Of a stretch of 64,000 nt of DNA, positions 1,100 to 27,597 are shown piece by piece. Source of the stretch: Schmidtea nova (taxonomy: Eukaryota). The stretch lies in the NCBI GenBank assembly GCA_044892505.1, contig CM097883.1, forward strand, positions 302,436,001-302,500,000, given 5' to 3'. The notes beneath the pieces are model-generated. The model was not told where the DNA came from. It saw only the letters and a program-made list of their open reading frames with translations, and did no database searches. The first letter of the stretch is position 1, and every line of letters begins with the position of its first letter. Position numbers and translations under genes: made by a program.

Positions 1100-1847
1100 T
1101 GCAAACAAATATTTACTTTATTTAAACAAAAATTAAAATAAACCAATTGCAATTATTGTAAGCAATGCTATGAACAATAAATAAACAATTTAATTATTTG
1201 TACAAAAATTCTCTTTCAATTGATTCAAATAGTTAAATATCATATTTTTAAACAAAATTTACATTAAACTTAAACCAATTTTTCTTCTCTTTTTCAACAA
1301 AATAATTTTTTTTAACAATTCAGAATAAAATCCATTTTTTGTAAATCAAAATTTTTAAAAATTAATAGTTTTAAAAAGGTTATTACACCCATCCTCGATT
1401 TACATGAAAGTTATGTTCCACGTTAAAGCGATACTGCGTAAATTGAAATCAAGGAAATAATTTTGAAATCAAGGAATAATTAGTAAATAGGTTAGAAAAT
1501 CGAGAATTGAAATCAAGGAATAATTAAAAATATTTAAACATCGTAAAAACCACACAATTATATTTAAAAATCAAAACAGATCCAGAAGCCACACTACTTC
1601 TAATATTTTCTCATTTTTTAATAGTGCGCATGGTAGATTCATTCATTCCACTGATGTGCAACCATCTCCATTTAACAAACGATCCAAAATTTCAATCTTT
1701 GTTTCTAAGAAATTATATTTCTCTTACGGTTACCTTTTGATCCTGTATTCAATTTTCTGTGTAGAATAAACTTTTCATTCAAAGTATTGTGAAATTAATA
1801 AAAATATTATAAGACACGGATTAAACGACTTCAAAGCATATTGAAAA

Positions 1848-1851
1848 CAAA
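1848..1851. repeat. 4-bp target-site duplication CAAA (partner at 31444-31447)
   Basis: ttgaaaa-CAAA-[TGTTGGG ... CCCAGCA]-CAAA-tatg. Confidence 0.85.
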
Positions 1852-2199
1852 TGTTGGGCCCACCAATTGGTCTAAAAAGGCAAAAATATTGTACTAATTT
1901 AAACAATAAATACAAATAATAACCACAAAAACATTCGAAAAACCTAAATTAAAAATTAAAATAAAATAATAAATAATAATTACTAAATTTCCAGCAAAGG
2001 AAGAAAATCAAATTGACACGAGAACGAGCAGTATGGGGGTCTGAAATAAGAAAATTACAAATAAAATCAAATAAAAGTACAATTAATTGGTTAATTACTT
2101 GAAAAATCGGGACCACCCAGCGAGAAATCTGAACCGGAAATTTAAAATGGTTTATATTAAAATAAAATAACAAAATTACTTTGATGGACGGCCGGATCC

Positions 2200-2235
2200 T
2201 GATTGGTCAATCTGACCAACTGGATCAGTATAAAT
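2200..2235 (+). promoter_or_regulatory. Candidate LTR promoter: inverted CCAAT-like pair plus TATA box (copy at 28725-28760)
   Basis: GATTGG and TTGGTCA-atc-TGACCAA (2203-2219) followed by TATAAATA at 2229-2236. Motif-based only. Confidence 0.55.
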
Positions 2236-3154
2236 ACCAATCCAAAAATCATAAAAACAACACCTAAAACTTAGCTACCGAACTGATCTATCATAGTCAG
2301 TTACATCAACTTTGATACGACAAATATTGTGTAAAATTTTGGAAACGCTGCATCTTGGATTTTAAGAGTAAATTTTGTTGTATTGTATTTGCATTAATTT
2401 TATGATATGTTTTACATGATTCCCATTCATTTCATTTTATTTAATATAATTTATTACTATTAATTGCTCTATTTTTCTTATGCTATTATTTTATGATATG
2501 ATATGATAAATATACTTCCTCAGTAGCTCACGCTGCGAGGGAGTAAGCCGTAAATGTGGGATTTCACCGTTCCACAAGATGGTGAGCAGAGTTTTATTGG
2601 TATTTGTATTTAATTCTATTTTTATCAGAGGTTTAACTTTACGGTGAAGTTGTGCAGGGACAAGGACACGGGTAAAATTAGTAGACAGTATTTAACATTA
2701 GTTAAGTAACATTCGATCAGACAGGAGAGAATAAACTACAGTATCAATGATCATGTCAACTAAATCGATTTCGCATATGCACACGATTTTTTCGAATCCA
2801 CATAGCTGATCGAAATAATGTCCGGACACACCGAGACGATTTCGACATTTCAACGATAGTTTCAATTAAGATATAAATAACAACATAATCAGATCGACAC
2901 TACTGATTGAATAAGTGAAATCGTAACCTGATCGCTGTAAATAGCGCAGGTGATAATATGTAAAATTTTAATAAACATATCCCGATCGCTGTATATAGCG
3001 ACGGTGTTAATTGAATAGCTTAGAAAATATTTTTATTCCTCCTTTTCCTATTTTTTTTTGTTTGTTGATCAACGAGAAGAGCACATTTCATTAGGTCTCA
3101 CCAAAAATTGCGGATTTGTCACAGTAAATTCCATTAGCATTATTATTTTCTCAG

Positions 3155-3655
3155 ATGGAATCAACGATACTGGATGAATTTCTAACAACCCAACGTCATG
3201 TGGCACGGGTCGAAAATCCTCCAATCCGGACGCAACAGAAGAAATTGAAGTCGCTTCCACAGGAACTTCTCAGAACGCTAAATGCGTTGAGGTATAAATG
3301 GAGACGGGAACTAGGAAAGAAATGTCCATTTTCGATTTGGGCCGGTGGATTAGATACCATCATATATCGTGGAGGCCCCGGATGGGAAATTCAGGACAAA
3401 AGAGACCGGGAGACGACAGCTCCATTCATCATAGTGGTGACAGACCGCGAAGGAAATCCAACGACAGTGATCCATTGGGGATATGTCTCACCGCTCAAGT
3501 TGCTTCACTTTGGGTTGATTCCGAACCACCTACCGAAAACGTGCCAAGGGCGTCCCAAACTAAACTGTTCGATGGCTCACATCCGACGAGATCCAGTCAA
3601 TCACGGGTTGCATATTACCCCCGTTCACGGCCTCAAGCGAAGCGTTTTTCACTAA
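3155..3655 (+). CDS. LTR-encoded ORF A, 166 aa, unknown function
   Basis: ATG directly after acceptor-like ttattattttctcAG. GC-richer, coding-like island in an AT-rich LTR. No family recognised. Confidence 0.6.
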   Translation: MESTILDEFLTTQRHVARVENPPIRTQQKKLKSLPQELLRTLNALRYKWRRELGKKCPFSIWAGGLDTIIYRGGPGWEIQDKRDRETTAPFIIVVTDREGNPTTVIHWGYVSPLKLLHFGLIPNHLPKTCQGRPKLNCSMAHIRRDPVNHGLHITPVHGLKRSVFH

Positions 3656-3839
3656 ACGTTATATTCACATTTTTATGAACTAAACTATTTCCATAAATTA
3701 AATGGTATTGATCTGTGTTTGGCTTGTTCTTAGTTAAATTTATTTCTATTTATTTAATCATATAATTTTTACACTCGACGGATAATATTAATCGTTGGTA
3801 ACATAATTGCTGCATCATAAAATGGGTTTGTTATTTAGT

Positions 3840-4430
3840 ATGACGGAAACTAGCCAACAGCGAGAATTGGACAAGGCGTGGAGAATCCGCCGAGCCTTAG
3901 AAAAGGAGCTAAATCAGGAAAAAGCATTACGAGCCAAGGCAGAAGCTCAGATTCAGTATTTACGGACCAGCTGGTTCGCCCCAGCCCGTATGAAAGAGCA
4001 GATGAGTCGGACGGAAAGGGCTCAAAAGACAGCTGACGATTATCGCACCGAATGGGAAGCAACAAAAATTGAGTTGCGCCGATGTCTCCATTCGGTGACG
4101 ACTTCATTTATCGAGTCCGAATTGAAAGCACAAATCCGACCTATCACCTACCAGAAATGGGTAGGAGAACAGAAAGTGGCCTGCTCGGTCAGTACGGACA
4201 CCGATGGGCTCGAGGCAACAACAGTGCAGAGTCGGGTGGAAACCACCCCTGTACCAAACCCCGTCGGAAAAACGAACAAGCGAAAACGAATCGGCTCCAA
4301 ACGCCGTCGCCAAAGAAAGCTGTTCTCTCAGCAGCTACAAGCACAAGTAACCACGATGGCAGAGATGTCGGAAGCCGAGTGGTTATCAGAGATATTCCCT
4401 CCCGAAGGAATTTTCAAAGAATTTCTGTAG
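3840..4430 (+). CDS. LTR-encoded ORF B, 196 aa from first ATG; coiled coil plus Arg/Lys-rich motif
   Basis: ttgttatttAG-T-ATG start. N-terminal heptad-like region and KTNKRKRIGSKRRRQRK (4269-4319). The track start at 3807 is a TTG. Confidence 0.7.
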   Translation: MTETSQQRELDKAWRIRRALEKELNQEKALRAKAEAQIQYLRTSWFAPARMKEQMSRTERAQKTADDYRTEWEATKIELRRCLHSVTTSFIESELKAQIRPITYQKWVGEQKVACSVSTDTDGLEATTVQSRVETTPVPNPVGKTNKRKRIGSKRRRQRKLFSQQLQAQVTTMAEMSEAEWLSEIFPPEGIFKEFL

Positions 4431-4924
4431 CAGATAGAATCATAATATGATGTCAGATTTTGGAGTTAATTAAATCTTTGCTGGTCTTGTTTTTTTGTTG
4501 TTGTTATTTCCTAGGTATTTCTTTCGATTACATAATTCATATAATTAAATTTAAATTACACGTCACACAAACGAAAGGAGTAGCGATAAAGGATTTAAAT
4601 ATTATCAAATTCGTAGTTTCGTTTTGCTTGTTTTTTCGTTTTTATGGTAAATACATAGCCTCACACGCACAAAATAGAACAATAATTGCGTAAGTCCTTC
4701 TACGGCCGCGTGAACCCGTAAACATAAAGGGGGAGTAGTCCTAGCAATAGTGCTCACCTGCCCCTCATTGTTTAGCCACCCTGCGCATCACCAACTTGGT
4801 TATCAAGGGAAATAACCAAGGGCGCTCGAGTGTAACTTACGACTATTTATGCATGATCATGGATGGGAGATCCCTAGCCATCATTAAAATTTTTACCAAC
4901 CCGTCCATGAACCCAGCATAAATT

Positions 4925-4942
4925 TGGGGGCTCAGCCGGGAT
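4925..4942 (+). promoter_or_regulatory. Primer-binding site, tRNA-Pro type
   Basis: TGGGGGCTCAGCCGGGAT, 6 nt after the 5' LTR; 16/18 identical to the classic tRNA-Pro PBS TGGGGGCTCGTCCGGGAT of MLV. Confidence 0.85.
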
Positions 4943-5298
4943 CAACTTCGTTTTATCGGAAAAATGTGAATGCAAAATCTGCAGAGAAGTTTAAAATGCT
5001 CGTGTCGTGTGAATAAATTTAATAAAAACAGAAAATTTGTAATTAAATCTAAATTATGTACAAAAATAAACAACAAACACAACAGCAAATAAAAGTAAAG
5101 TTATAAAAATCGAATGCATGCATAAATAATTTGTCGGGACGACAATTTTCGGAAACACGGGGAGAGTAAATAAATGCTAAAAGATGCAAAACGAAACATA
5201 TTACTACTTTAAATAAATATTAAAAGACACAAAACGAGACATATTACTACTTTAAAATTATAAAAACAACAAAGTTAAAACGATTATTTATTCAGCAA

Positions 5299-5760
5299 AT
5301 GGAGGAAAAACTGAAAGAAATCGAAGAATTTCTCAACACAGAAAGCGAAACATTAGCAACAATTGGCAAGAAAATAAACCGATTTAGAGAACTTGATTTT
5401 CAAGAACCCACAACACAGACCGAGGAAACAGATGAATTAATAAAGATAACAGAAAGAACAAGTAAAATCGACATAAAAACCCGCTACAAATGGTACCGAG
5501 CACGACTAGAGAATGCGGAGCTAAACATTAGATGCAGACAAATAGAACAACAATTAACCCCAACATACAATCGATGGAGGGCGCAAGGGGTAGAAGCAGC
5601 GAAAAAATACCGACAGTGCTATATATGTGAAAACAACGAGACACAAATTATGTTTTTACCTTGCGGACATTTCCGTTTTTGTAAGATCTGTGCCAACAAG
5701 CGTGACCGGTGTCCGATGTGCAACTTTACTGTGAATGAAAAAATTATGGTTTATTTGTAA
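5299..5760 (+). CDS. 153-aa protein with C-terminal IAP/MDM2-type C3HC4 RING finger (E3 ligase-like)
   Basis: CYICENNETQIMFLPCGHFRFCKICANKRDRCPMCNFTVNEKIMVYL* has the spacing and extreme C-terminal position of XIAP/cIAP RINGs. No BIR seen. Acceptor tttattcAG-caa-ATG. Confidence 0.9.
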   Translation: MEEKLKEIEEFLNTESETLATIGKKINRFRELDFQEPTTQTEETDELIKITERTSKIDIKTRYKWYRARLENAELNIRCRQIEQQLTPTYNRWRAQGVEAAKKYRQCYICENNETQIMFLPCGHFRFCKICANKRDRCPMCNFTVNEKIMVYL

Positions 5761-6237
5761 TAAATGTTTAGAGTTGATTAGTAAAAGGTCGAATGGTGAA
5801 TCATGGGAACAATCATTGTATTTAAATAATTTTTGAGCTACTGCAAAGTAGTCCGATAAGAATCCATTGGGGGGTACCGATTGATCAACCTAGTCAGGGT
5901 GTATAGAAAGGGGCCCATCGCAAATGTTGGAAAGTTTTTGTGATGTGATTGATCACCACATCCTGCATTAATAGACCAACGCGATCTTTTTGTATATTGT
6001 GGTTGGGGAGAGAGACAGGGAAATCTTGATGGAGTAAAGCGCGCATAAGAAAATAAATAAAAAGTTGAAGCAGACTGATCAGGAATTAGTTATGATAGAA
6101 TAAGGAGATAAATGACAATTTTTGAAAGAATAAAAGGTGCATAGTCAGCTCGCATAGAAGTAGTTATAACTCAGCTGAGAAATTTTAATCGCTAGCGAAG
6201 TAGGGAATTGTGATTAACCGGTTAAGTAAAGTTATAA

Positions 6238-6528
6238 GAGATTTGTCCCTTGAAACAAAGGGTTATGAGATTTGTCCCTTGAAACAAAGGGTTAGGAGAT
6301 TTGTCCCTTGAAACAAAGGGTTATGAGATTTGTCCCTTGAAACAAAGGGTTAGGAGATTTGTCCCTTGAAACAAAGGGTTATGAGATTTGTCCCTTGAAA
6401 CAAAGGGTTAGGAGATTTGTCCCTTGAAACAAAGGGTTAGGAGATTTGTCCCTTGAAACAAAGGGTTATTAGAGTTGTCCCTTGAAACAAAGGGTTATTA
6501 GCGGTTTGTCCCTTGAAAAAAAGGGTTG
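6238..6528. repeat. Tandem array of 10 x 29-bp hairpin-forming units
   Basis: GAGATTTGTCCCTTGAAACAAAGGGTTA(T/G), starts 29 bp apart from 6238 to 6441, then two degenerate copies. Confidence 0.95.
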
Positions 6529-6569
6529 AGGCCAACGAGCCTTATTGAATGACCTAGCTAGGCGTTATA

Positions 6570-6762
6570 GAGAGATTAAATTGAGGCCAATAGAGCCATT
6601 TGAGAGATTAAATTGAGGCCAATAGAGCCATTTGAGAGATAAAATTGAGGCCAATAGAGCCATTTGAGAGAGTAAAATGAGGCCAATAAAGCCAGGAGAG
6701 ATATTAAAATGAGGCCAATAGAGCCATGTGAGATATAAAATTGAGGCCAAAAGAGCCATAGT
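6570..6762. repeat. Tandem array of 6 x about 32-bp units each containing GGCCAAT/GGCCAAA
   Basis: GAGAGATTAAATTGAGGCCAATAGAGCCATTT at 6570, 6602 and 6634, with degenerate copies at about 6666, 6696 and 6730. Confidence 0.93.
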
Positions 6763-7336
6763 GGATTATAGAGATATCCGGATAAATAGTAACAGAGGGA
6801 ATATAGACCCATAGTGTAATCGTCGACGAGATTTAGAATAGTGCGCACTAGTAGTTAAGAAATGCGAGTAAAGCTGATTATGCAACCTTAAATAAAGCAT
6901 GCAAGGAGAATAGAAAAAATTTGGGCTGACCGGAGCAACCGGCAGAATGAGTAAAACAATTGCTAGCAGGGAATAATGAATAGAAATGATAAAATAATGA
7001 TAAACGAGTCAGAAAGACTCAGGGAATTAGAGCGCTCGAGCGACCAATAAATTGGGAAACTGTGGGAAAAGTAATTGATTTGTTAAAACATAGATAATTA
7101 TTACGACATAAATAGATAATTGTGACCAGTCTATAGATAAATTAAATAGACTAAAAATAAAGGGGAATCTGGGAATTGGGAAATAATGAAAACCCAGTAA
7201 TAAGTAATCCCGAAAGAAAGGGAATAAAAGCGTGACGATAACAATAATGTATCGTTGAGGACCTTTGTATTTTAGATATACAAATCAATCAAATCAATCA
7301 ATCAAGCAAGAAGAATCAGAACACGATAAGAGATAG

Positions 7337-9019
7337 GACAAGAAAATTGAGTATACAAAAGTAATCCCCTTGAGAAAAGGAGCAAAGAGTGTCGTAGTAA
7401 AACCAACGGAAAAGAAAGTCGGCAGCAATATTAATAAAAAAGACAAAATTAGTACTACAACAAAAACAGCAAAAAAGCAGAAAGCCGGCAAAGATAACAA
7501 CAAGAACCCACAAGGGAGTAAAGCGAGGAAGATAATAAGAGATAAATCGATTATCGAAAACGATAAATTGTCAGTAGTAAGCAACAGCTCAAGTAACAAA
7601 GAAAACCAAACGGAACCCAAGGAGAACCAAACAAGTGAAATTGAAATCGACGAAACTAACAACGATAATATCGAAGAAATAGAACACGAGATAGAACAAG
7701 AAGGAGAAACCGACGAAACTAACAACGATAATATCGAAGAAGTAGAAAACGAGGTAGAACCAGAGGTAGAAATCAACGAGAGTGATAACGAAAGTATAAT
7801 ATCGGATAACGAAGTAATAAGAGAAACAGAAAGCGATTCAAGCTCGAGTGAAACAGAAGACGAACATAACAACGAACTAGAAACAAGAGGAAACGAAAGT
7901 AAAATAACTCAAGACAGCGGAATTGAAATGGGTGAACCAAGAGAAGAAATAAAGGATAAATTTTCAGGAGAACCGTTTAACGGAGATGCGAGTAAATTAG
8001 AAACCTTTTTAAAGGAATTTGGCATATTCGTGGAAGTATGCAAGTGGAAAGCGGAAACAACAGTAAGCAGAATTCAATTATATTTGAAAGATAGTGCATT
8101 GGACCTATATTTGGAAGCGAAAAATGGTACCAATCCACCTACAAGCTGGTCAGCGATAAAGGATTTTTTCCAACAAACATTTGGAATAAATAAAGTGCTA
8201 AGCGAGGCATTCATAGAATTTTCAATGAGGAAACAAAAGATGAATGAATCTAATGCGGTATACGCGAGCGAACTGAAAAAATTAGCAAAATCGGTATTCA
8301 AGGATGGAGGTCCAATAAACGAGGAGTTAATGGCAGCCATCTTCATAGGAGGATTAAGAAGACCCGACATAAGAGCGCAAGTGGGATGCCAAGGATGCAA
8401 AACCATAGATCAAGCGTTAGAAACAGCTAACAGATTCGAATTACATATGATAGGAAGTGAGGGCAGAATTTATTTAGCCATGGACACAGCACAAAACGAA
8501 CCAGAAGTAAACCTCAACAATCACATTCCAAATTCGCAACAATTAAACCGACCACCCCCTCAACGAAGGAATGAAGGAAATAAAGTGCAGAACTTTGGAA
8601 ACCAAAACAATTACAACCCTCAAGGACAAACAAAACAATGTAAAACATGCGGGAAGTTGGGACACTGGCAGCAAGAATGCTATCAAAATTTGAATTGCGG
8701 AAAATGTGGAGTTAAAGGACATTCGGAGAGTAGATGTTCTACGATAATCTGTTTTAATTGCGGACGACCTAGTCACTATTCAAGAAATTGCGGACAAAAA
8801 AGTAATCAACGAGGAAACTGGCAGAGTAATGGGAACCGACCAAATTACGGAAATCAAACAAACACCGTAAACCGACAAGATTATGGGAACCAACAAGTCA
8901 ATAATAACAATAGTCAGAACAAAACTACCACCAAAGAAATACATTTGATGCAAGAAGTTCAAAGGTTGACGGAACTGATAAACAATACGACGAGAGGAAA
9001 TCCGCAAACCAATCAATAG
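7337..9019 (+). CDS. gag: Gag (acidic/basic N-terminal extension, capsid-like domain, three CCHC zinc knuckles)
   Basis: Frame open from 7337; first ATG only at 7928. Capsid-like FNGDASKLETFL..RKQKMNES..YASEL. Knuckles CKTCGKLGHWQQEC, CGKCGVKGHSESRC and CFNCGRPSHYSRNC (about 8639-8785). Confidence 0.93.
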   Translation, partial: DKKIEYTKVIPLRKGAKSVVVKPTEKKVGSNINKKDKISTTTKTAKKQKAGKDNNKNPQGSKARKIIRDKSIIENDKLSVVSNSSSNKENQTEPKENQTSEIEIDETNNDNIEEIEHEIEQEGETDETNNDNIEEVENEVEPEVEINESDNESIISDNEVIRETESDSSSSETEDEHNNELETRGNESKITQDSGIEMGEPREEIKDKFSGEPFNGDASKLETFLKEFGIFVEVCKWKAETTVSRIQLYLKDSALDLYLEAKNGTNPPTSWSAIKDFFQQTFGINKVLSEAFIEFSMRKQKMNESNAVYASELKKLAKSVFKDGGPINEELMAAIFIGGLRRPDIRAQVGCQGCKTIDQALETANRFELHMIGSEGRIYLAMDTAQNEPEVNLNNHIPNSQQLNRPPPQRRNEGNKVQNFGNQNNYNPQGQTKQCKTCGKLGHWQQECYQNLNCGKCGVKGHSESRCSTIICFNCGRPSHYSRNCGQKSNQRGNWQSNGNRPNYGNQTNTVNRQDYGNQQVNNNNSQNKTTTKEIHLMQEVQRLTELINNTTRGNPQTNQ

Positions 9020-9028
9020 CAAATTAGC

Positions 9029-12000
9029 ATGATGAGGAAAATAGAAAGCGAAAACGAACGATTGAATCGAGAAAGTCAAGCACGACACGCTCAGGAATGG
9101 GCAAGAATACAAAGAGAGGATGAACAAAAACAACAAGAAAGAGAGCGACAACCTCTAAGAATTAACATGCTAAGAGAAACAAACCAAACAGACACTCGCG
9201 AGAAAGAAACCACACCGGAAATAAATTCGATAAACCCGAATCCAACTGACAATGAAAGTCGAAAAGGAGTAATACAGGATGAGGGGGAAGCAGAAAAGGA
9301 AATAGAAAAGGAAGTGGAAACTGAGATAAACCAGGAAGAGAGGAAGGAGATTTGGAAAAGAGGAATGATGGTAATCATGCCCAACAAATCCGTGTTTAGA
9401 TTCCAGTATAACGTAAAAGAAGAAGTGGGAATATTATTCAACAAAGTAAACCAGATGGTTCCAGGAGTAACGAAACTGCCCAGAGAAGCGTTCTTACAAA
9501 TAGAAGGTGTGCCAAAAGTAAAGTTGGAATTAACGGATATATGGGAAAACTTGGGAGTAGTAGAAACAAAAAGAAACGTGATGATTATTAAAGAAATAGA
9601 ACCAGAAGAAATTCCACCACCAATACGTCACGAAACCCGAATCAGGCGAATATTTGAAGGAAAAATGATAAGAAGACGTTTAAAAGAGATAGACGAGTTG
9701 GGAAAGAAAATGGAAAAAGTCGAAGTAATAGAGGACAAAAATGAACTAACACCAGAAATCAACAAAAACAAAACAAAACCCACGGAGAATATACAAGGGG
9801 AAACGAACCAAACAGCACATATTAATATGTTAAGAAATACCACCAGAGAGTTCTCCGATGAAGAAGAAGATAGTGACATCAGTAGCCTAGCAGGAGACAT
9901 ATTAAATGAACCCGAAGACGAAAATAAAGAGAGAGAAGTAATAAAGACCTCAGAACCTACACAGATAAAAGTAGATGAAATCCAGAAATTACTAGATAAC
10001 TCGCTAGAAGTAATATATAACGAAGAGTTCATGGACAAGAAACAATATCGGAAATTCATGAAAGCATTATTACAAATGAACTACAAAGAATGGTTACAAG
10101 ACCGGGAAGTAGACATGTTAAATCGATACGTAAGGAAATTAATAGAGGAACCACTCCTCAATTACACCATCTCAATAATAATAAATACATCTACACCAAG
10201 AATCTGGATCAAAACTCCATTTACAGACGATATCTACAGATGGGTGGAGGACAGGCTAGGGAGCTCATATAAAAACAAATTCATCTATTCGCAGAATAGA
10301 CTCGTAAAGAAAAGAACGCACTTAGTAGAAACAGGTAAATGGCCAGGAGAAATAACCCTGTTATCAATATGTGACGAAAAGGAAGAAGAGAACCTACAAG
10401 AAGTTGCAAAGGAGGCAAACACGTGCTTCGAAAGGAGAATAGAACCTCGGTTAGAATACGCGAAAGAACGAGTCTTACGAAAGAATCTAAATTCCCTGAT
10501 AGAACAAATCATACCACAAGTCAAAAAACATAGAAAAGAGTTAATGAGAAGCGAATACGAGAAATTGAAACGATGTATTGAGTGCATACGTGACACAAGT
10601 CACACGAGATGGTCACAAATCTCACACGACAAATTAATCGCAAAAATGGGAAAAACAATGTTCAGACAAGGGAAAATAACAGATCTAAAAATTTCAGTGG
10701 AATTGCCTAATGAAGACACCAAAGAAATTGAAGTAGTAGCGGATTGCACCATTAAAGAATTAATAAATGTCATCAACGAGACACTAGTGCAAAGAGAACC
10801 CGAAGACGAATGGGAAGACGACATAATCATACAATATAACGAACATGTATTATGGGATCACGATGAGAGACGACTATATAAAATCGGTATATGGGATAAT
10901 CACCAAACCATCCACGTTATCAGAATGGACGATACACCCAGAGAAACTGCTAAAGATGAGAAAAGAGAACGGGAACGACGGAAAGAAGTTGTGCGCAAAT
11001 TACAACAAATAGTAGAAATCTATCGAAATTGGCGAACTTGGCCAGAGTGGGAAAATGTATTAGAAGAACTCAATCTCAACAGACGAATACGAACACCCGT
11101 AGAAAAACAATGGAACGAGAAAGGAAAATGTTGGGAACCAAAAGAAGGGGAATATGAAGAAGAATATGAAAGAGGAATGGAAGATGACTGCGAACCAGAA
11201 ATGAGAAGGGTTTGCATGGTGACAAGGAAAGCTACGCCAATAGACCTAGATGGACCAGAAACAGCGGCTATATGGTTAGAAAAGGAAAAGCAAAAAACGG
11301 AAGAATTTGTCGAAATATTAAAAACTAATGCGCACGGTAAGAGAAAAGTAATAAAAGGTCTCGCAGATTTTTTCGTGGTTAATGGAGAAGATATAACATG
11401 CTTGCGTAAAGTGGCAAAAGCAATCGCAGAATATAAAAGAGTCAACGAATGGTGTCCGGAACAACTAGACCACGTAATTAGGAAATGGAGAAATCAAGAA
11501 TTCTCGCAAGAAATTCCACAAAAAGTACATTTAAGAATAATATATCCAAACAAGGATAAGGAAGAGCTTTGGGTAGGAATAGCAGAAAAAATTCGAGATA
11601 TTAAAAAGAAATTGAGATACGAACCACCGTTCCATTTACAACACCAAGGACGATCATTAGATAACAGTTTAGAAATTGGAATAACGCCAGCACAACTAGA
11701 CCTCATGAATACCCTGACAGTAGAAGCAATAGCGGGTCAACCATTGAAACGTAAAGAAGAAAACCATAAACCACACGGAAGTATAAGTACGCCGAGCCCG
11801 ATGAAATCAGTACTAACACCAGGGACAAGTTCGAGACGATCTGAGACAACACCCAGAGAAACCAGAGAAAGGACTCCACCACAACCATACGACGTGGACG
11901 AAATTTTAACGGATAGCGACGATATGATAGAAGAATTAACCGAATTAACAAGGGAAAAAGACGATAACATTTTCGAAAGAATACAAGAATTACCTACGAC

Positions 12001-15000
12001 AATACAAGTAACCAACACCGGAGAAACAGAAGTCGAAGAAGAAATAATAATAGAAGAAATAAACGATTTGACAGAAGACGAAACGAGAGGGGCGAATGTC
12101 GAAAATGTACAATTAACCCAAGAAATGGAAAGATGGTTAGAAGAAAGAGCTAACGAACCAAGAGATGTCACGGAAGAAACAGGACGGGCAACAAGGTTTG
12201 TGGAAACAGGTACAGGAATGGATAGACGACCTCGAGGTAGACCCAAGACAGATCCAGCAACTGTAGTTATAAGAAATAAAGATGAAAAGAGACAAGATCA
12301 ATGGGAATTATGCTTAAGGAAACTAAATAAAATTGCGGAGATGAAAGAAAAAGAGACAACACCAATATGTCAAGGGGAGGAATGGATATCGAAAACAATA
12401 ATGGAAATATTGGCAATAATTGATCCGGAATTGAGAAAATACTGGCGGATAACTGAGATAAGCGAAAAGGCGAAGTCACTATACAGCGCAATCTCCCCCA
12501 TCTTACCGGAATTCATAAAAGAAAAGACGAAGTCAAATCATTTAGACTGGCAAGGAACCACTACGTTAATAAAGAAACTGACAGAAGGAGCGGAAACAGA
12601 TAACAAATACGTAATAGCCATTGCATACACGATCTACAATCTGTTGACACTGAGTAGAGGTCGACCAAAACCCACTGCATTAGAGAGACATATAAAAAAT
12701 ACCGCAAAGATTATAGCTAGAGAAATAGAACCTTACGTCATTAACAAAGGAGGATGGGAAACATTTATAAAAACTAACCAGAAGAAAACGCAAGCGAAGA
12801 ATATGAAGAAGAAATTCGAAAAAATATTGGAAGAGTTAGAAAAAGAACAAGCAGAAACAGGAAACGCGAAGTCATCAATGAATTTGAGCTCTATAATAAT
12901 GATGATGTTGATATGGATGATTAGCACCGATAGCGCAACAGCATTCGAAGTGTTTGATTGCGACCAAATGAAGTTAGGAGAAAAGTATTCATTGAGAGGT
13001 ACGGAGCAATGTAAAGATGCAACTCCAGTAGAGTTGCAAAAGATTAAAAAAGAACAATGGTACCACGTGTATCAAGAAGCAGAACTCATAAAGACAATGG
13101 TGAATGAATGTAAGGTGCAGAAGACGAGATTCGCATTTTACTGCGGGAGAGGACATTATTCAGCAATTGTCATGCCAGGAACGGAAAGAGAACCAATCGT
13201 GTTACAAGGAGAGGACTGCGAAGCACTGTTTAAACATGGAGAAGTAACAACAAGAGATAAAATCAAGATAAGAGGAAAGCCAGGAATGATGCTGCAACAG
13301 ACATACTATGTAGCAGGACGGATTACGGGAGGAGAAGGATATTGTCAAGGAGAAACCTACCCGATATTCGGAGTACCCGCAACTAACTTAGTGGTGATGG
13401 ATACGTATATAGTCGAATTAAAAAGCTATGAAGCATTCTTCGAACCAACAACGGGAGAAATGAAAACGTTATCCATGTGTAAAATCGACAGGAGCATGTG
13501 TCAAACGGGAATGTCAACATTAGTATACAAACCAAAGGTGAACGAATGTCAATTACAACTGCTACAAGGAGCACAGTTCGACGAAATTCAAGGAAAGACA
13601 TTCCAGGAAGAAGACGATGACGACAAAGCTAGAGCAAAGCACCTCAAGGAAGCTTTGGAGAATAAAAGACAATTGAAACCAGATCATAGGGAAAAACGGA
13701 TAGAGATGAGAGCCACACCAACAGTATTGATAACCACAAATCAGGATGTGGGAATGAGATTCATAAAAGGGAAAGCAACCCTTAAGTGTAGTACAACGGT
13801 ATACGAAACAAATTATCCAGGAATATATGTGTCAAAACAAGAAGTACCAAATGCGAAACCCAAAATCGACACAATGGATATCAAACTACACCTGTATGTG
13901 AATAATAAAATGGATTTCCTATTCCATAGAGGACAAGCCTCATTACAAAAAGTGTACTACGATCTGATAAACAATGATTGTATACTGAATCGAGAAATAT
14001 TAAAGACAAAGTTGGCCGTAGCGATTACGAATCCAGATAGCGCGATGCCATTATTACCACTGAGAGAAGGACATTTCGGAAGAGTGGTTGGAGAAGCAAT
14101 GTATGTATACATTTGCGAAAAGACACACGCGTCGCTAGCAGCAACAACGCAGTTGAAACCTGGAACCTGTACAAACGAGTTGGAAATCGATTACAAAGGA
14201 AAAGTACGATACGTTCAACCAGTGACGAGAATCATCAATCCACCAGGGTTTGAACCAAATCCATTCAACTGTAGTAATGCGTATGGACCACTTTATCAGA
14301 AACCAGATGGTAAATGGGTTATGTTCCCAGGAAGATCCGAAGTGATAGCACCAAGAGAATTCGAGCTAATGCAGTTGTCAAAGGATAGGCAATTCAGCGA
14401 CGTAGATGTCTCAAACAACGGAATATATAGTCCAAAGGATTTAGAAGCAGCAAGGCAGAATATATTATTTCCAGCGAGAAGAGAAGCATTACTGTCAAAT
14501 ATCGTAACGATAACGGGAGGAACGGATTATCGAGAAGGACCGAATTATGAACTGTTGTTGTCACCAGCACATTTCAAGAAAGCCACGGAAAATATGATGA
14601 AAGCAATGTGGGGAAGATTCCTGATATTTGGACAAATGATGGCTGGAATACTGGGGGTCATATTAATAATCCAAATCGTCAGAGTGATAATAACGCAAAT
14701 GTTAGCGTGTTTCGATATCTACAAGAGAGAAAAGAAAGTGAATTGGAAAATGGTAGTAGGGTTTTTACCATTCCTTGCGAAAACAATGGTGTTGCACGGA
14801 CACTCAAAAGATATCCATCGAATAAAAAGACTCCTAAAGATACTAGCAAAAATGAAGGGAACAGATGAAGAAGTAGGACGAAAATTTAAAAAGATAATGA
14901 ATGACGAACAAGCAAGACAACAGCTCAAGAGAGAAAGAAAAGGTTTATGGGAGAGGGTGAAAGGATATAAAACCCAAAATGATTCGAGTGACGACGATGA

Positions 15001-18000
15001 TGACGATGACGACTATAAGGGAGGACAAGTGTATAAGAACCAAGCACCGCAATACATCGAAAAGAATCCAGCCGACGCATGGAAATGTTACGCACCTCCA
15101 CCAACCATGTATCAAGAACCACTACAAGGAGGAAAAAATAGCACGATGCAAATGATGCCAATGACAAATGTATACCCCATGATACCAGAAGATTATAAAA
15201 TGAGAAGATGTAGAAGCGTAGATCCACAAGGAGATACACACACGATCGCAGTGATGTCATCAAACACAGGTCCAGTATTAACCACGACAATAGAGATTAA
15301 CGGAAGAGAAATCGAAGCAATGATCGACACTGGAGCAAATATTTCCGCCATCGATATCAAATGGATACCACAAGAGCAAAGACGGGAAATAGAAAGGACA
15401 AACGTCCATGTAATTGCATGTAGCAAAGAAGTTGTAGAAGTAGCAGGAAGATGGTGGGTAAAAATACGCCACTTAAATACAGAAATCGATACGTACGTAG
15501 CAGTCATACCAGCATTAAGCGTACCTTGCATTATCGGAACAGATTTGATGCCAGCGTTATTTAAAGAAATCGTAATCGATCTCGGAACAATGAGATTAAA
15601 GGATCGCACCGGACAAATATGCGCAATAGAAGCCAAGGTAACGAGTTCAAAGCAAATGATAATACCGGCAAGAAAGGAAAAAATATGTTACGTAAAAATA
15701 GATCCGACAATCCAAGGCGATATGATTTTCGAACCAAGTAAGAGATTCGAGAAAAGAAAAGCGTTGCCAATGGCAAGAGGACTAGTCAACATAAACGATA
15801 ATGGGGAAATCCCAATAAACGTAGTAAATTTCGACGAGGAGGATAAAATAATCTACGAAAACGAAAGACTAGGTAAACTAACCCCAATGATGGATATCGA
15901 AATACCAATAGAAGGGGCAGAGAAAGATAAAGAACCAACCTGGAATATCGATAGTGAATTATTAAATGAGGAGCAAAAGAAGCAGTTAGAAAAACTTCTG
16001 ATAGAGTATAAGGACATATTTGCAGCATCCGATTTAGATCTAGGAACATGTGATGTCACGTTACATACAATACCATTAACAGATGAAACACCAATTGCAT
16101 TAAGGCCGTACAAACTAGCGGAAGCACAGAAAGCAGTAGCAGAAGCAGAAGTGAAGAAAATGTTGGATGCAGAAGTAATCGAACCAAGTTGCTCACCCTG
16201 GCAATTTCCAGTGGTAATGGTAAAGAAGAAAGACGGAACACAGAGATTCTGCATAGACTACCGAAGATTGAATACAGTAACAAAACGAGATACTTACCCA
16301 TTACCAGACATCAACGAAATGCTACTAACATTACAGGGAGCAGCATATTTTACATCACTAGATCTGAAAAGCGGATACTGGCAAATAAAAATGAAGGAAG
16401 AAGATAAAGAGAAAACTGCCTTTACCATCGGTAGAGACCTATATCAATTTCGAAAGATGCCCTTTGGATTAACAAACGCACCAGCATCATTTCAGAGATG
16501 CATGAATTTCGTCACCCATGGAATAAAGCAGTGTATGGTCTACATCGACGATTTATTAATCTACTCTAGCACGTTTGAACAACACATACAGGATATTCGA
16601 GATGTATTCGTTAGACTTAGACAATGGAAGTTAAAACTCAAGCCATCCAAATGCGATTGGGCAAAAGAAAAGGTTACATTTTTAGGACATATAGTGTCAG
16701 CAAAAGGAAAAGAACCGGATCCTAGAAACATCGACAAGGTAAAAGAATGTCCAGTACCAAAAACAATAACCCAGATACAAGAGTTTCTTGGATTGTGTGG
16801 ATACTATAGAAAGTTTATTAAAGATTACGCCGGAATCGCAAAGCCTATACAGGAGCTGGTAAAGAAAGATGTATCATTCATATGGGGAGATGAACAGCAA
16901 ACAGCCTTCGAGACATTAAGAGATAAACTGATAACCGCACCCATATTAGTACACCCAGACTTCAAGAAGCCATTCTTACTTGCAACAGATGCAAGCGGAT
17001 ATGCAGCAGGAGCAGTATTAGGACAATACGACGACGAAGGAAAAGAACGGGTAATCGGATATTATAGCCGGACATTCAAAAAGCATGAGAAAAATTACTC
17101 AGTAACAGAGCGAGAAGCATTAGCAATTATACTAGCAATTAAACACTTTAAATATTTATTATGGGGACACATCATCTGCATAACAACAGATCACCAACCG
17201 CTTGTATGGTTAGGACAGCACAAGGAAACATCCAGTAGATTAATGCGATGGGCAATGCAGCTACAGGAGTACTCACCAGACATAAAATTTAAATCAGGAC
17301 GAGCGAATGCGAATGCAGACTGTATGTCAAGACTGACATTTCCGGAATTAACCGATCCTGATGTACAACGAATTTGTGTATTAATAGCAGAAGATTTAGA
17401 TTTTAGTGAGTTAAAGAAAGATCAACAGGAAGACAAAGAATTAGGACAGATCATAGAGTTCCTAACATCTCGAAATATGGAAGTATTCAAGGATAATAAG
17501 GAATTAAAGGAACATATAGGAAAGTATCAACATCGATATATAATAAATAAAGGATGGTTGTTAATACAAGATGGTGAAAAGAGATTGATGTGTTTACCGG
17601 AAAACAGAAGGAAAGAGATAATGACCCAATACCACGATGGAAAATTAGGAGGTCATATGTCAGAGAAAAAGACAATAAATCGTATGAGACAAAAATATCA
17701 TTGGCGAACAATGGAGGAAGATATTAAAGAATGGATTAAAAATTGTCTAACTTGCGCAACCAGAAAGGATAGTGGGAAGAAATGGAAAAACCCGCTACAA
17801 CCAATGCCAATACCAGCAGAGCCAATGACAACTATAGCAATGGACGTAATAGGACCATTACCAGAAAGTTTAAACGGAAATATTTATATATTGGTAATAA
17901 CGGATTACCTGACGAAATTCCCGGAAGCATTTGCCATGCAAGATCAAAAAGCAAAAACCGTAGCAAAAATTCTAGTGGAAGAAATATGTTGCAGATACGG

Positions 18001-21000
18001 AACTCCAAAACAAATACTCACAGACCAAGGAACTAATTTTATGAGCGAGTTATTGAACGAGGTGACAAACTATTTCAGAATAGCAAAATTGAGAACTTCA
18101 CCATATCACCCGCAAACGAATGGACAAACGGAGCGATTCAATGGTACATTGATTAGAATGTTATCAAATTACGTCAGCAGACATCAAACTGACTGGGACG
18201 AGTACATAAAATTATGCTTAATGGCATACCGAATGTCGATACATGCAGCAACAAAACTAAGCCCATTTCAACTTATGTATGGGAGAGAATGCAACATGCC
18301 CATAGATTTGGAGTATCAACCACCATTATCCCAATATATGGAAGATGACGACTACGTAACCAAATTCAAAGAAAGAATGCAGGAAATATGGAAAACGGCA
18401 GAACTAAACATTAAATTTTATCAGGAAAGTTATAAGGATTTGCACGACCAAAAGAAAAATGTTAAAGCGAACGATCTAAAACCAGGAGATTGGGTGATAA
18501 TAGAAACTCCCGAAATAATACCAGGAACGGTTAAGAAACTCCAAAGACCTGGAAGAGGACCTTATGAAATTATATACAAAAAGGACAATAATGTCAAAGT
18601 TAAGCTGATAAACCGACCATTAATACGACCCATATATGTAAACACCTGCAGATGTAAGAAGGTGCCTAAAACGATAACTACAACACCAGAGAATCGAATA
18701 ATAACCAGATCACAAACAGCCAGGATAAATATGCTCAGAGCAAACACAAGCGAAGACGACAAAGCAGAAATAAGGCAAAAAGAAATCAGAAATATAGAAA
18801 TCATATTGAAGGCGAGAGAGATAATGGGAAGATGGCATGTTAAAGACGAAGTAGGCATATCAAGGGACATTAGACATATAATTAGCCGTTACGCACAAGG
18901 ATTACCAACCGAACCAATTATTTCTGAATTATTGGAAAAAATCCCTGAAATACTCTTATTGAAAGATGTAGGAGGACAACCAGCCTTACACAATGCGATA
19001 GAGTGTAAAAACATTGAAAGAGCAAAAGAATTCCTAAAAATCGCAAAAGAAACAAACCAAAACTTGGACGTAGGGAATCGTGAACAAGAAACTCCATTAA
19101 TGACAGCCGCAATCCACCAAGCAGATAAAGAAATGGTAGATTTATTGATAAAAGCCCATTTCAGTTGGACAGAACGAGATAGAGAAGACAAAACAGTGCT
19201 AAATCACGTAATATGGAGTTCTCACCAACCAATGCTTAAATACATAATAACTAACTCCACGTGGGAAATAGACGAACTAGTAAAAGGAGACATTATCAAA
19301 GAGGCAATCAAAATTGGTAAATGCAACACGATCCGTAAGTTAATCAAATGGAAACGACCAGAAGATGATACATGGGTCTTAGACATAAACGAAGTATACA
19401 GCGAAGGACAAAACGCGCTGTTAAGATATCTTTTGAAATTTACTTGTGATCAGAAGACATTACTAACCGTATTAGACAGAGGAAACATAAACATCACAAA
19501 GAATGAAGAAGAATACAAATTCGATATAGAGAAGGAAGCCTTATTCAACAAGATTAGGAAATGGTGTGCGAAACCACTTGATAAACTAATAACATACAAA
19601 GACATAAACAATTTTAACGATAAATACCAGACGATAGTAAGTGAGTATGAGGAATTAGTAAAAATCTTAAACCATCCCGAAAAATGCAAACAGGTTTTAG
19701 AGAAAAAAGAAAGAGAAAGTAACAAGAAACTCACACCACTCTTCAAAGCAGAAGCACCATACCAAGCTAGACTAGATGCGATACAAGAAAAAGCAAAGGA
19801 GTTGCTACCGGAATTCGAGAATTGTAAACACGCATTAGAAATACTCGGTGCATTAGTTGAAAAAGTACACGCATACGCAAAAGGAACATACAATGGTAAC
19901 GATATAACGACTTTAAAAAAGGAGATGCCAGTAACATTTTTACTACCAAAGGACGGAATAATGCCCATACATAGAGCTCTACGAAATGGCAAAGATAAAA
20001 AAGTAATGGAAATTGCAAGAGTAATGCTAAACTGCGGAAGCAACATGAATATGGTAGACGAGAAAGGAGATACACTCATGATATTTGCAGCAAGGGCTAA
20101 AACAAAAACAAAGGTGTTGGAAGAACTATACAAAGCAGGTGCAGGACTTACAGGAAAGACAGATAAAGATAATTCAATTTTGGATGTAGCATTACTAACA
20201 CATAATTGGGAAATGGTCAACTTCATTAAAACAATCTCAAATCAGGAAGAAATAGATTACCTAACTGATACGGTCAAGAAACCCAGTGTACTAACAATGA
20301 TGCATAATGTCGAACTAACAGAAGCAATACTTACGTGGATAAATCCGAATACTAACGAACCAGCATTCAGGATTAATGAGTTTACAGAACATAACCAAAA
20401 CTGGTGTATAAGAAGTGCCTTAATAACATATAAATGGCCAGAGATATTGAAGATGTTTATGGAAAGAAAGGATCTAAGAATCACAAACAGCCCGAAAGAA
20501 GAAAAATACACAGGCAAATGGAAAGAATTGATGAAGACATACATCAACAATTGGATCAAGGCCAAAAAGGAAATCTTAGAATATAAATCCACTAACAAAG
20601 TAATACCGGAGCATGTAGAAACACAAGAATTTGAGGCAAGTAATCTAACGACATTAGCATATGCAAAATTGATAGAAGAAATCAATGTCGAGGACGACAT
20701 TTTCGACGAGCCAGGGGGAGATGACAATACAGACAGTGACGACGATAACAACTCAGAAAATTCGAACGATCAAGAACCACCCGATAAAGAGGAAAACGAG
20801 AGAAAAGACAAGAAACGAGACAAAGAAGAAAAGAAAAATGAAGACGAAAAACAAAAAAATGAAGAGGGAGAACAAAGAGACAAAGGAGATAAAAATGACA
20901 CCCAACGAACAGGTTACAAATCAACCATAAAACCATTCTTCAAACCAGAGTTACTATTATTAACAGTGATTTTAACGTTAGTTAACCCAAGTCAAGGAAT

Positions 21001-23278: not shown

Positions 23279-24396
23279 ATCGACCAGCAACTCAGAAGGA
23301 AAATACAACGAACAAACCAAGAGAAGGGAAGAGAAGCACCAATAAAACGAGAGAAAGAATATCACCCCAACAGGAGTGCGTATGCATAGCATTAATACTA
23401 GCAATGTCCAAACGTTTCGACAGAGGAATAATAATAGAACAAATGGCTATAACAATAAGAAAAACAAGCAGCGCCAAACTATGCTGGGGAACATACAACG
23501 AACCAAGGAAAGAATACCAAGTTCAGACAAGCGACGAATCACGAACAAACAAGGAAATCGAAATACAAGAAATACAAATGAATGAAGAAGGAAGTATATG
23601 TATATGGGAGAAAGGAACCCAAGAAGATCAACCCGGAATAGAAAATTGCAAGACATTCCAAAAAGGAGAAACTCTGAAATTCGATGAAGAAGAACTAACT
23701 AAAACAGAAAGAACTCTGACATTAACAGGACTCGATCAGACAGTTAAAGGAATATGTTGGACAAAACATAAACCAGAAGTGGAAGAAGACAACCTAACCC
23801 ACTGTAAAGAAATAAAGAATAAAGAAAAAGTCGAATTAAAGAAAATGGAAGTAAATAGGACATACGCGATATGTACCTTCACCAGAAAAGGTTCAGAAAA
23901 ACCAGAATGCGGATTATATCAGATCTCAGAGAAACTACCACAACAGACCGAACCAGGAGGCGTAGAAAACCAGACAACGAAAAATGACGTCAAACAACTA
24001 CTAAACCGCCATTGGTCTACACAAGAAGTAATGAACAAAGTCAAGAATCAAGTGCAGAAGGAGAAGAAGCCAGAGGCTCAAACCCAAAATGAGATAAAAG
24101 CGAATCAGAATAAAATCAAAGCAACAAACCATGGAAAACCAGTAATAGGACTAATCAGTATAGGAATATTAATAGCATATGGAATACTGACGACAAGCAT
24201 AATAGTATATTGGAGATACAGAAAGAAAAACAAAGCGACAGCCATACAATGGCCAGATATCAAAATTATGAAACAAGGAATAGAAATACCAGAAGAGATA
24301 CAAAAAGAATTTCAAAGAAGAACGAAAGGTAAAGAATTCTGGAAACAAATAGAAGATGAAGAACGATACGAAGAAAAGACGATAATGATGGTATAG
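23242..24396 (+). CDS. Frameshifted continuation of the FN3-like/TM cassette (two more repeats plus TM)
   Basis: Frame open from 23242, overlapping the polyprotein end. CVCIALILAMSKRFDRGI parallels VLCLALILIMIKRLEEGI in the main ORF. TM VIGLISIGILIAYGILTTSIIVYW-RYRKK. Confidence 0.8.
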   Translation, partial: SKTNKEKIKNTIDRPATQKENTTNKPREGKRSTNKTRERISPQQECVCIALILAMSKRFDRGIIIEQMAITIRKTSSAKLCWGTYNEPRKEYQVQTSDESRTNKEIEIQEIQMNEEGSICIWEKGTQEDQPGIENCKTFQKGETLKFDEEELTKTERTLTLTGLDQTVKGICWTKHKPEVEEDNLTHCKEIKNKEKVELKKMEVNRTYAICTFTRKGSEKPECGLYQISEKLPQQTEPGGVENQTTKNDVKQLLNRHWSTQEVMNKVKNQVQKEKKPEAQTQNEIKANQNKIKATNHGKPVIGLISIGILIAYGILTTSIIVYWRYRKKNKATAIQWPDIKIMKQGIEIPEEIQKEFQRRTKGKEFWKQIEDEERYEEKTIMMV

Positions 24397-24522
24397 GGGC
24401 GGATTATGACTGTAAATAATAGTGTAAATAACAAAGCATTACCGTAATAGTATGGGTATCGATATTATAAAAAATTGTAAAAAGATAGAAAAGCAAAGTA
24501 AATAATGTATATAATTTAGAAA

Positions 24523-24879
24523 ATGACCGAACAGGACGAAACAACCGAAATAACTATGGCTATGAGATGGAAAGCACAATGCGATTTATTAGTACGAACA
24601 GTCAACTCATTACAGAACCAATTAGCGGAAAAACAAATGTTACTATCAGAAAGTTATAACAATTGTTTCGAACAATTACACAGAATAGAGGAACAACAAA
24701 GAGCGATAACTGAACTCACCAGAGAAAATCAAAATATAAGCAATATCAATCAAAGACAAGCAATAGAAATAAACCATTTAACACGAGGAGAAAGAGAAGA
24801 ATCCGAAGAAGGATGGATGAGTTGGGTAATAAATAGATTAAACAACGAAGCGGAACCAGATTCAACGAATGAGCCATAG
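24523..24879 (+). CDS. 118-aa coiled-coil protein, unknown
   Basis: ataatttAG-aaa-ATG start; heptad-like Q/E/L-rich core; same A-rich codon style as the element. Confidence 0.65.
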   Translation: MTEQDETTEITMAMRWKAQCDLLVRTVNSLQNQLAEKQMLLSESYNNCFEQLHRIEEQQRAITELTRENQNISNINQRQAIEINHLTRGEREESEEGWMSWVINRLNNEAEPDSTNEP

Positions 24880-24971
24880 ATAAATAAAGCGGAAAATTGT
24901 AAATATGTAAAAATAAAAACAAGAAAAATCAAAAATAAATGACAAGTCGAATGTATATATTATTGTAGAAA

Positions 24972-26348: not shown

Positions 26349-26460
26349 TGAAGGAAGTGACCATGTAAATAAACTGTATAAAACAATATGAAATAACAAA
26401 TAATCAAAAACAATAAAAATAAAAACTGATTAAATATTCTCTTTATCTGTAATTATAGAA

Positions 26461-27522: not shown

Positions 27523-27597
27523 ATGAGCGGAAACCAATTGTAAATAAATTATGTAAAATAAAAAGTGTCAAGCCGTATTGACCGATGTATAAAAGAG

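Follow-up and report, generated by a model that had tools for sequence, protein, structure and literature searches.

The repeat (R) and unique 5' (U5) regions of long terminal repeats (LTRs) are usually taken to be short and noncoding, and the genes known from LTRs lie in the unique 3' (U3) region. A retrotransposon of Schmidtea nova raises the question of whether complete genes can also lie downstream of an LTR promoter. The element is part of a 64,000-nucleotide (nt) stretch, here called the window (GenBank assembly GCA_044892505.1, contig CM097883.1, positions 302,436,001 to 302,500,000, forward strand), and coordinates below are those of the window. Each LTR contains two open reading frames (ORFs), ORF A and ORF B, with the appearance of spliced genes. 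We put at about evenly balanced the proposition that both are real genes, placed downstream of the main promoter in U5 and expressed by cis splicing.

Two open reading frames in each LTR

A self-comparison of the window reveals the two LTRs as a single long direct repeat with 99.74% identity across 3,073 nt. The LTR ends are exact, the copies differ by seven substitutions and the element is flanked by a 4-bp target duplication, CAAA. The element totals 29,592 bp (~29.6 kb), of which 23,458 bp are internal, and contains no N. The repeats and their reading frames are as follows.

1852 to 4918, plus strand: 5' LTR, 3,067 bp, TG to CA, with the CAAA duplication at its flank
28377 to 31443, plus strand: 3' LTR, 3,067 bp, TG to CA, with copies of ORF A at 29680-30165 (161 amino acids [aa]) and ORF B at 30365-30955 (196 aa)
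3155 to 3655, plus strand: ORF A, 166 aa, acceptor immediately before the ATG
3840 to 4430, plus strand: ORF B, 196 aa from an ATG just past an acceptor
3298 to 3678, plus strand: overlapping +2-frame ORF in ORF A, 126 aa (P = 0.006 versus synonymous shuffles)
4073 to 4450, plus strand: overlapping +2-frame open stretch in ORF B, 125 codons, 122 aa from ATG 4082 (P = 0.015 versus synonymous shuffles)

Both LTRs carry ORF A and ORF B. A first-pass annotation of this DNA gave them as 166 and 196 aa in each copy, which is correct for the 5' LTR and for ORF B of the 3' LTR, but an in-frame stop at codon 162 shortens the 3' copy of ORF A to 161 aa. An in-frame ATG at 3822 would lengthen ORF B to 202 aa. 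At least two ORFs of at least 166 aa arose in 0 of 1,000 global shuffles of the LTR and in 0 of 1,000 block shuffles (two block sizes), and the segments stayed open under shuffling of their own sequence in 22 of 2,000 trials for ORF A and 10 of 2,000 for ORF B. The overlapping +2 frames run 20 to 23 nt past the main stops, and the LTR has no minus-strand ORF of >85 aa. Matches to ORF A or ORF B were not found elsewhere in the window.

Each ORF follows a splice acceptor, as had been claimed: CAG immediately precedes ATG 3155 (ORF A), and TAG lies one base before ATG 3840 (ORF B). YAG 0 to 3 nt before an ATG, with at least seven Ts in the 20 nt upstream (a threshold chosen after the sites were seen), marks six of 10 ORF starts (ORF A, ORF B, a RING-finger ORF and three downstream ORFs), compared with 0 of 44 other ATGs in the LTR and 3 of 511 other internal ATGs. 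Islands of ~50% GC coincide with ORF A and ORF B, and T-rich tracts coincide with the putative introns.

Searches with the two proteins were blank. For ORF A, none of 17 candidates from a word-index search held up, and a full HMMER scan of 1.84 billion sequences returned two matches, both rejected as summed-repeat artefacts in proteins of 1,503 and 7,046 aa (best single pieces, 20 and 27 bits). Pfam gave ORF A only one match, below cutoff (Flexi_CP_N, E = 0.037), PHROGs gave no match and PDB gave nothing below an E value of 1. None of 62 candidates held up for ORF B; its best value in Atlas was 0.87 with low recognition and no homologue, its best PDB match was tau (E = 0.14) and no viral fold reached an E value of 0.001 among the 500 matches listed. 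A match of the ORF B overlap frame to the element's polyprotein (E = 0.001) was rejected as weak and of low complexity. Rfam had no match in 1800-7400. The lack of homologues leaves no ratio of nonsynonymous to synonymous substitution rates to calculate, but the blank searches say little, since the same library lacks close kin of the element: its TRAF-like ORF has a best relative of only 25% identity.

The absence of homologues or folds, together with the shortening of one copy of ORF A, would also suit nonfunctional ORFs that arose as by-products of structured, GC-rich RNA or through recent capture of foreign sequence, with incidental splice-like signals. The GC content at fourfold-degenerate sites points the same way, being 0.52 in ORF A and ORF B versus 0.30 in the internal ORFs and 0.32 in blocks of a host spectrin gene (P = 8e-5; the blocks include some intron). 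This explanation is nevertheless highly improbable, as the open frames exceed composition-matched shuffles, the acceptor geometry is common to the RING and TRAF ORFs and the ORF regions fold little better than shuffles (z scores of 1.4 to -0.7 for ORF A; best z, -2.7 for ORF B). The deviation in GC may instead reflect long residence in the LTR, overlapping coding or foreign origin.

Two possible signs of history were examined and rejected. Three of the four LTR-to-LTR changes in ORF B are silent in the main frame (P = 0.11, not significant) and three of three alter residues in the overlap frame; these differences were set aside as a selection test, as the changes probably postdate insertion. 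A 5'-to-3' rise of A at fourfold sites was considered as a sign of long LTR residence, but has a rho of 0.41 (P = 0.08) over 19 segments; it reaches 0.66 (P = 0.004) only without the last two segments and does not discriminate U3 from R/U5.

Putative promoter, leader exons and 3' ends within the LTR

The location of the two ORFs relative to U3, R and U5 depends on where transcripts begin and end. Signals that bear on this are listed below.

1852 to 2258, plus strand: putative U3, A-rich, with NF-Y-type CCAAT boxes at 1864, 2084 and 2200 and TATAAATA at 2229; boundary set at TATA + 30
2259 to 2367, plus strand: putative leader exon 1, ATG-free (71 of 1,000 shuffles, weak alone), then donor GTAAAT at 2368 and a T-rich 156-nt intron
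2524 to 2581, plus strand: putative leader exon 2, with alternative donors: 2543 gives a 19-nt form without ATG, and 2582 gives a form that ends in ATG
2582 to 2628, plus strand: candidate 47-nt T-rich intron
2629 to 2671, plus strand: putative exon 3, 43 nt, donor GTAAAA at 2672
2921 to 3010, plus strand: hairpin whose loop contains AATAAA 2970, with TGTA-type motifs at 2936, 2959 and 2990; candidate cleavage at ~2985-3005
3697 to 3702, plus strand: ATTAAA 42 nt past the ORF A stop, then a GT/T-rich tract; candidate poly(A) signal
4469 to 4474, plus strand: ATTAAA 39 nt past the ORF B stop, then a GT/T-rich tract; candidate poly(A) signal
4659 to 4689, plus strand: putative 31-nt exon that lacks ATG and ends at donor GTAAGT 4690, upstream from the primer-binding site (PBS)

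The TATA box annotated at 2229 is present as TATAAATA, 29 nt past an NF-Y-type CCAAT box, and such a pair occurs in 10 of 1,000 LTR shuffles. All three NF-Y-type CCAAT boxes of the LTR precede 2229 (three boxes in 25 of 1,000 shuffles). RNA polymerase II would start ~30 nt past this TATA box, near 2259, and R and U5 together would then span ~2,660 nt.

Between this putative start and the ORFs are candidate donors and acceptors for short leader exons. GT[AG]AG hexamers occur at only three places in the LTR (2543, 2582 and 4690), and further candidates are two donors (2368 and 2672) and three acceptors (2523, 2628 and 4658), giving candidate leader exons of ~109, 19 or 58, 43 and 31 nt. The first-pass annotation listed strong donors at 2543, 2582 and 4689. 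The first two sites exist, the third (GTAAGT) is at 4690 and "strong" suits only the last: by simple U1 match, 4690 shares the top rank among 144 GT sites; 2543 and 2582 belong to a tie that spans ranks 11 to 20. The acceptor of exon 2 pairs with donor 2543 in one stem (z, -3.7). An intron of 47 nt is plausible, as the host spectrin gene has frame-consistent intron candidates of 50, 63 and 73 nt, clear in only some of the 11 exon pairs tried. Donor 4690 likely serves the internal genes.

The most T-rich downstream sequences among the 123 A[AT]TAAA hexamers of 1852-28376 are those of 3697, 4469 and 2970. AATAAA 2970 is the last in the LTR, with none between 2971 and 4918; a 90-nt hairpin (z, -4.2) within a structured region at 2700-3010 (z, -3.0) presents it in its loop, and a TGTA[ACT]ATA motif lies on either side (1 of 2,000 shuffles). 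One form of this motif, TGTAAATA, lies 15 to 27 nt past the stop in four internal ORFs. The best candidate for the R/U5 boundary is near 2990. ORF A and ORF B would then be located in U5, and the minus-strand strong-stop DNA would be at least 1.9 kb and up to 2.7 kb. The simplest reading of these signals is a U3 of ~0.41 kb, an R of ~0.73 kb and a U5 of ~1.9 kb that holds both genes, each with its own 3' end. These lengths agree with the R plus U5 of ~2.6 kb first estimated, but not with the idea that a strong-stop DNA of this order is exceptional: R and U5 of rice Retrosat2, placed by motifs, total ~3 kb (PMC3485330), and a long R plus U5 therefore has precedent.

The same promoter could instead yield a genomic RNA that ends after ORF B, at 4469 or 4544. 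ORF A and ORF B would be in an R of 2.2 to 2.3 kb at both RNA ends, U5 would be ~0.35 to 0.43 kb and early transfer would avoid a very long strong-stop DNA. In favor of such an end, 4469 ties for the most T-rich downstream sequence, 2970 is intronic and could be skipped in both LTRs, and the annotation of rice Retrosat2 gives R a length of 2 kb (PMC3485330). We consider it unlikely, given that 2970 is a canonical hexamer, encountered first, in a hairpin loop and with a TGTA-type motif, whereas 4469 and 4544 are ATTAAA without TGTAAATA.

Alternatively, the genes could lie in U3, as does sag of mouse mammary tumor virus (MMTV), whose U3 contains the whole ORF (PMC12789967). The 2229 promoter would then serve accessory mRNAs only; genomic RNA would start at ~4570-4625, with the major donor 4690 in a short R, and end near ATTAAA 4883, giving a strong-stop DNA of ~0.3 kb. 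TATA-like words occur at 4540, 4550 and 4594, 4690 is the best donor, LTRs with two promoters are known from BARE (PMC3485330) and Sushi-clade LTRs carry AATAAA near their 3' ends (PMC3601003). However, motifs favor a start site ahead of the ORFs, the LTR has no NF-Y-type box past 2210 and no TATAAA past 3293, the sequence after 4883 is T-poor (0.25 to 0.28) and U5 would be only ~15 nt, making this arrangement as unlikely as an end after ORF B.

Several observations weigh against a location of both genes in U5. A second TATAAATA is present at 2872, with weaker TATA-like words at 4540-4594; U1 match gives donors 2368, 2543 and 2582 only middling ranks, and T-rich sequence is absent after donor 4690. 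The T-rich runs that follow the hexamers may be polypyrimidine tracts, and shuffling places a hexamer within 60 nt of the stop in 19% of cases for ORF A and 15% for ORF B. In any model, one LTR must be read through at three poly(A)-like sites, and retroviral R regions are given as 15 to 250 nt (PMC12789967). Homologues of ORF A or ORF B are absent from the libraries searched, the predicted fold of ORF A is unusable (predicted local distance difference test score, 33), that of ORF B has a predicted template modeling score of 0.25 and the case for ORF B function is one of composition only. The sole LTR-to-LTR change in ORF A is a stop five codons early, the mostly silent changes in ORF B lack significance and two copies permit no selection test. 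The architecture as a whole is read from a single element and its motifs.

With both genes in U5, the LTR would be the early transcription unit of the element. Cis splicing would join short noncoding leader exons to the acceptor at the start codon of either ORF A or ORF B, and a separate signal ~40 nt past the stop would end each mRNA. Genomic RNA would use the same start site and take its 3' end at the hairpin AATAAA corresponding to 2970 in the 3' LTR. In the 5' LTR this signal would be intronic and below four donors, where U1 binding or splicing could suppress it, by analogy with foamy viruses.

A Burro-like Ty3/gypsy element and its internal genes

The element has the Ty3/gypsy traits of paired TG-to-CA LTRs, a target duplication and a PBS. 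A profile search of its polyprotein gives, in residue numbers, the Ty3/gypsy order of protease (PR; 2086), reverse transcriptase (RT; 2398), RNase H (RH; 2644) and integrase (IN; 2857-3028). Its RT is closest to the Ty3 RT among solved structures (E = 4e-90, best of 12 matches), and foamy-type Pol chains match more weakly (E = 2e-31 or worse). Internal features are as follows.

4925 to 4942, plus strand: PBS-like 18-mer, beginning TGG, 6 nt past the 5' LTR end
5299 to 5760, plus strand: RING-finger accessory ORF, 153 aa, acceptor 3 nt before the ATG
7928 to 9019, plus strand: gag, 363 aa, reached via acceptor 7275 and a 652-nt ATG-free leader
9029 to 23278, plus strand: polyprotein, 4,749 aa, with fusion glycoprotein, PR, RT, RH, IN and ankyrin repeats
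23404 to 28158, plus strand: five downstream accessory ORFs, one TRAF-like, with spacers of 75 to 126 nt, four of them with TGTAAATA

The PBS-like 18-mer, which we take to be of the tRNA-Pro type, is separated from the LTR by a gap of 6 nt (4919-4924), and the window contains no tRNA gene. Upstream of the 3' LTR (28350-28376) there is a short AGGGG run ~12 nt away but no long polypurine tract.

The sequence is Burro-like, judged against the description of planarian Burro elements in PMC6431247. Both are of one size class: the internal region here is 23,458 bp and the total just under 30 kb, and Burro has up to 25 kb internally and >30 kb in total. Shared features include a fusion glycoprotein, env-like and encoded in frame after gag and before PR (PF24664 at residues 1559-1899, E = 2e-70) and a Gag with CCHC knuckles, two or three in Burro and here two zf-CCHC stretches, three by eye, beside a Retrotrans_gag match (E = 1e-4). 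A giant polyprotein, ankyrin repeats, MATH/TRAF and RING modules and accessory ORFs are also common to Burro (GYPSM1) and this element. Unlike in Burro, the MATH/TRAF module is on its own downstream ORF (24972-26348), and in place of a single giant ORF1 that starts with Gag, gag and the polyprotein occupy one frame split by a single stop (9017-9019). The BIR domain of Burro was not found: none of 12 element proteins matches a BIR model at an E value of 0.1, and the ORF at 5299 has a RING only. Its BCL2-like and ubiquitin-like segments had no match in PDB and Pfam searches. A BH2-like word of the BCL2 family was seen by eye at 12700-12790, before the env region, and was not confirmed by those searches. 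Burro also has a dUTPase-like segment; in the PR-RT interval here, five of five weak matches are to dUTPase or dCTP deaminase (E = 0.37 to 0.71).

A 652-nt gag leader without ATG is found in 2 of 1,000 shuffles and, with acceptor 7275, indicates that gag is probably read from a spliced mRNA. Upstream in the gag frame (7337-7927) are 197 stop-free codons, basic and then acidic and without ATG, a possible non-AUG extension. The in-frame stop between gag and the polyprotein (9017-9031) has CAA on each side, presumably a leaky context, and is followed within 12 nt by AG and an in-frame ATG; read-through and a separate spliced mRNA are therefore both possible. The polyprotein end and the next ORF (21350-24400) encode repeated, weakly Fn3-like domains with hydrophobic segments, and two short tandem arrays (units of ~29 to 31 and 32 nt) lie between the RING ORF and gag (6231-6770). 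The plus strand of 5299-28158 is strongly A-rich and T-poor, with fourfold-site A climbing along most of the interior, and the LTR past 2350 is without this skew.

The accessory ORFs of 23404-28158 have TGTAAATA or AATAAA after their stops and acceptors at their ATGs, an operon-like or adenovirus-like layout. That the internal accessory ORFs have the same acceptor and 3'-end layout as ORF A and ORF B suggests one promoter with staged RNA processing. The acceptors could also be sites of spliced-leader trans splicing, in which case the element would be transcribed as an operon, its RNA cleaved at every 3'-end signal and given new caps by host spliced-leader RNA; this would be compatible with a U5 or an R location and would change only the mRNA 5' ends. 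Internal spacers of 75 to 126 nt, with 3'-end motifs and then an acceptor at the ATG, fit the ~100-bp peak of flatworm operon spacers (Macrostomum, PMC8629364). Trans splicing is nonetheless very unlikely here, as ORF A and ORF B have cis donors upstream, which are said to outcompete the spliced leader (PMC4558846), and the spacer between them is 184 nt.

The host spectrin gene, which encodes a PH domain as well as spectrin repeats and is beta-spectrin-like, occupies 34345-61721 on the minus strand, convergent with the element, and its 3' end is ~3 kb from the 3' LTR. Approximately 55 copies of a 177-bp satellite, 94 to 98% identical, lie between its exons (36542-46400). Positions 1-620 contain the decayed remnant of an integrase from another retroelement, with 32% identity to that of the present element.

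Possible regulators in LTRs and known systems

Full-length RNA must get past candidate 3' ends after ORF A, ORF B, the RING ORF and the ORFs farther downstream, a task for which a regulator would be needed. ORF A and ORF B are nearest the promoter and would be made first. The product of ORF B could be a nuclear regulator that carries transcripts past the many poly(A) and splice signals farther downstream or takes unspliced RNA out of the nucleus, or a Tas-like activator. Rev, Rex, Rem and Tas are the products of small spliced genes with overlapping frames and combine a basic patch with helical and acidic segments. ORF B has two long predicted N-terminal helices (in the low-scoring fold mentioned above), 11 lysines or arginines within residues 144-160 and an acidic-hydrophobic C terminus. 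These properties, and its place among the first genes after the promoter, are the grounds for a tentative assignment as a Rev/Rex-like or Tas-like regulator, which we hold to be possible but doubtful; the resemblance is compositional only, with no sequence or fold similarity detected. Export factors of the Rev/Rex type are defined by an arginine-rich RNA-binding motif, an export signal, a response element and export activity, against which the basic patch of ORF B and the structured region at 2700-3010 were observed. The fuller proposal is somewhat improbable taken whole. It would have two immediate-early regulatory genes (perhaps four, with the overlapping frames) moved into U5, a strong-stop DNA of ~2 to 2.7 kb and a single promoter for the whole 30-kb genome, whose transcripts would be alternatively spliced and polyadenylated in stages, like those of the late unit of a DNA virus.

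Genes downstream of the cap site would mean that RT copies kilobases ahead of the first strand transfer as a matter of routine, and would help explain how a 27-kb RNA passes many splice and poly(A) signals. Solo LTRs could then scatter complete protein-coding genes, beyond promoters; under the fuller proposal, each would be an autonomous expressed regulator cassette, able to act in trans on further copies and on RNA processing in the host. The first-pass annotation proposed such a promoter-plus-two-gene cassette. With two spliced-looking genes below a credible promoter and their own poly(A)-like signals, a solo LTR would indeed hold all the parts, but the window contains no solo LTR, only the two copies of the element. 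Possession of the parts does not guarantee expression: of 38 tapeworm solo-LTR loci, 16 gave short RNAs confined to R and 22 gave read-through (PMC4558846), and solo LTRs here may likewise yield mostly short R-only RNAs. Burro1 is reported, second-hand, to support planarian stem cells and regeneration, which would make LTR-borne regulators direct candidates for host effects.

Protein-coding LTR sequence reached by splicing, as ORF A and ORF B appear to be, is represented by MMTV sag, which is wholly in the LTR, by rem exon 2 and by HIV-1 nef, part of which is in U3 (PMC12789967). Those sequences are in U3, upstream of the cap site, whereas ORF A and ORF B appear to be downstream, as two genes each with a candidate 3' end in the LTR. 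Rice Retrosat2/RIRE3 has a similar LTR of >3 kb, whose first 250 nt contain CCAAT and TATA and which has several poly(A) signals, but its extra ORF0 lies upstream of gag-pol, and coding in the LTR is not described in the available text (PMC3485330). Foamy viruses have short, noncoding R and U5 regions and differ in this respect, as in the Ty3-like RT of the present element. What they share is donors located upstream both of the PBS and of the poly(A) signal in R; in foamy viruses, U1 on the upstream donor suppresses the 5' poly(A) site, and a change in RNA structure releases the site in the 3' LTR (PMC3694450). U1 binding and RNA structure could likewise select the 3' LTR site in the present element.

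Among animal gypsy elements, LTR sets average 174 to 695 nt (PMC3601003), and reviews, in the portions available, place extra ORFs in the internal region (PMC7264820, PMC5408684, and PMC12786077). ORFs inside LTRs go unmentioned in the available Burro description (PMC6431247), as do genes in Burro LTRs in the accessible parts of PMC8532177, PMC11410931, PMC13465017, and PMC6673714; the phrase "ORFs within the LTRs" in the last was rejected as a precedent, as it means between the LTRs. In the literature covered by the searches, leaving aside the main Burro papers (Grohme 2018 and Lee 2026), which may annotate LTR ORFs, no gypsy element was reported to carry genes in its R or U5. Coding LTRs and long LTRs are both known, and what would be new in the S. 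nova element is the presence of two separately processed genes downstream of the cap site.

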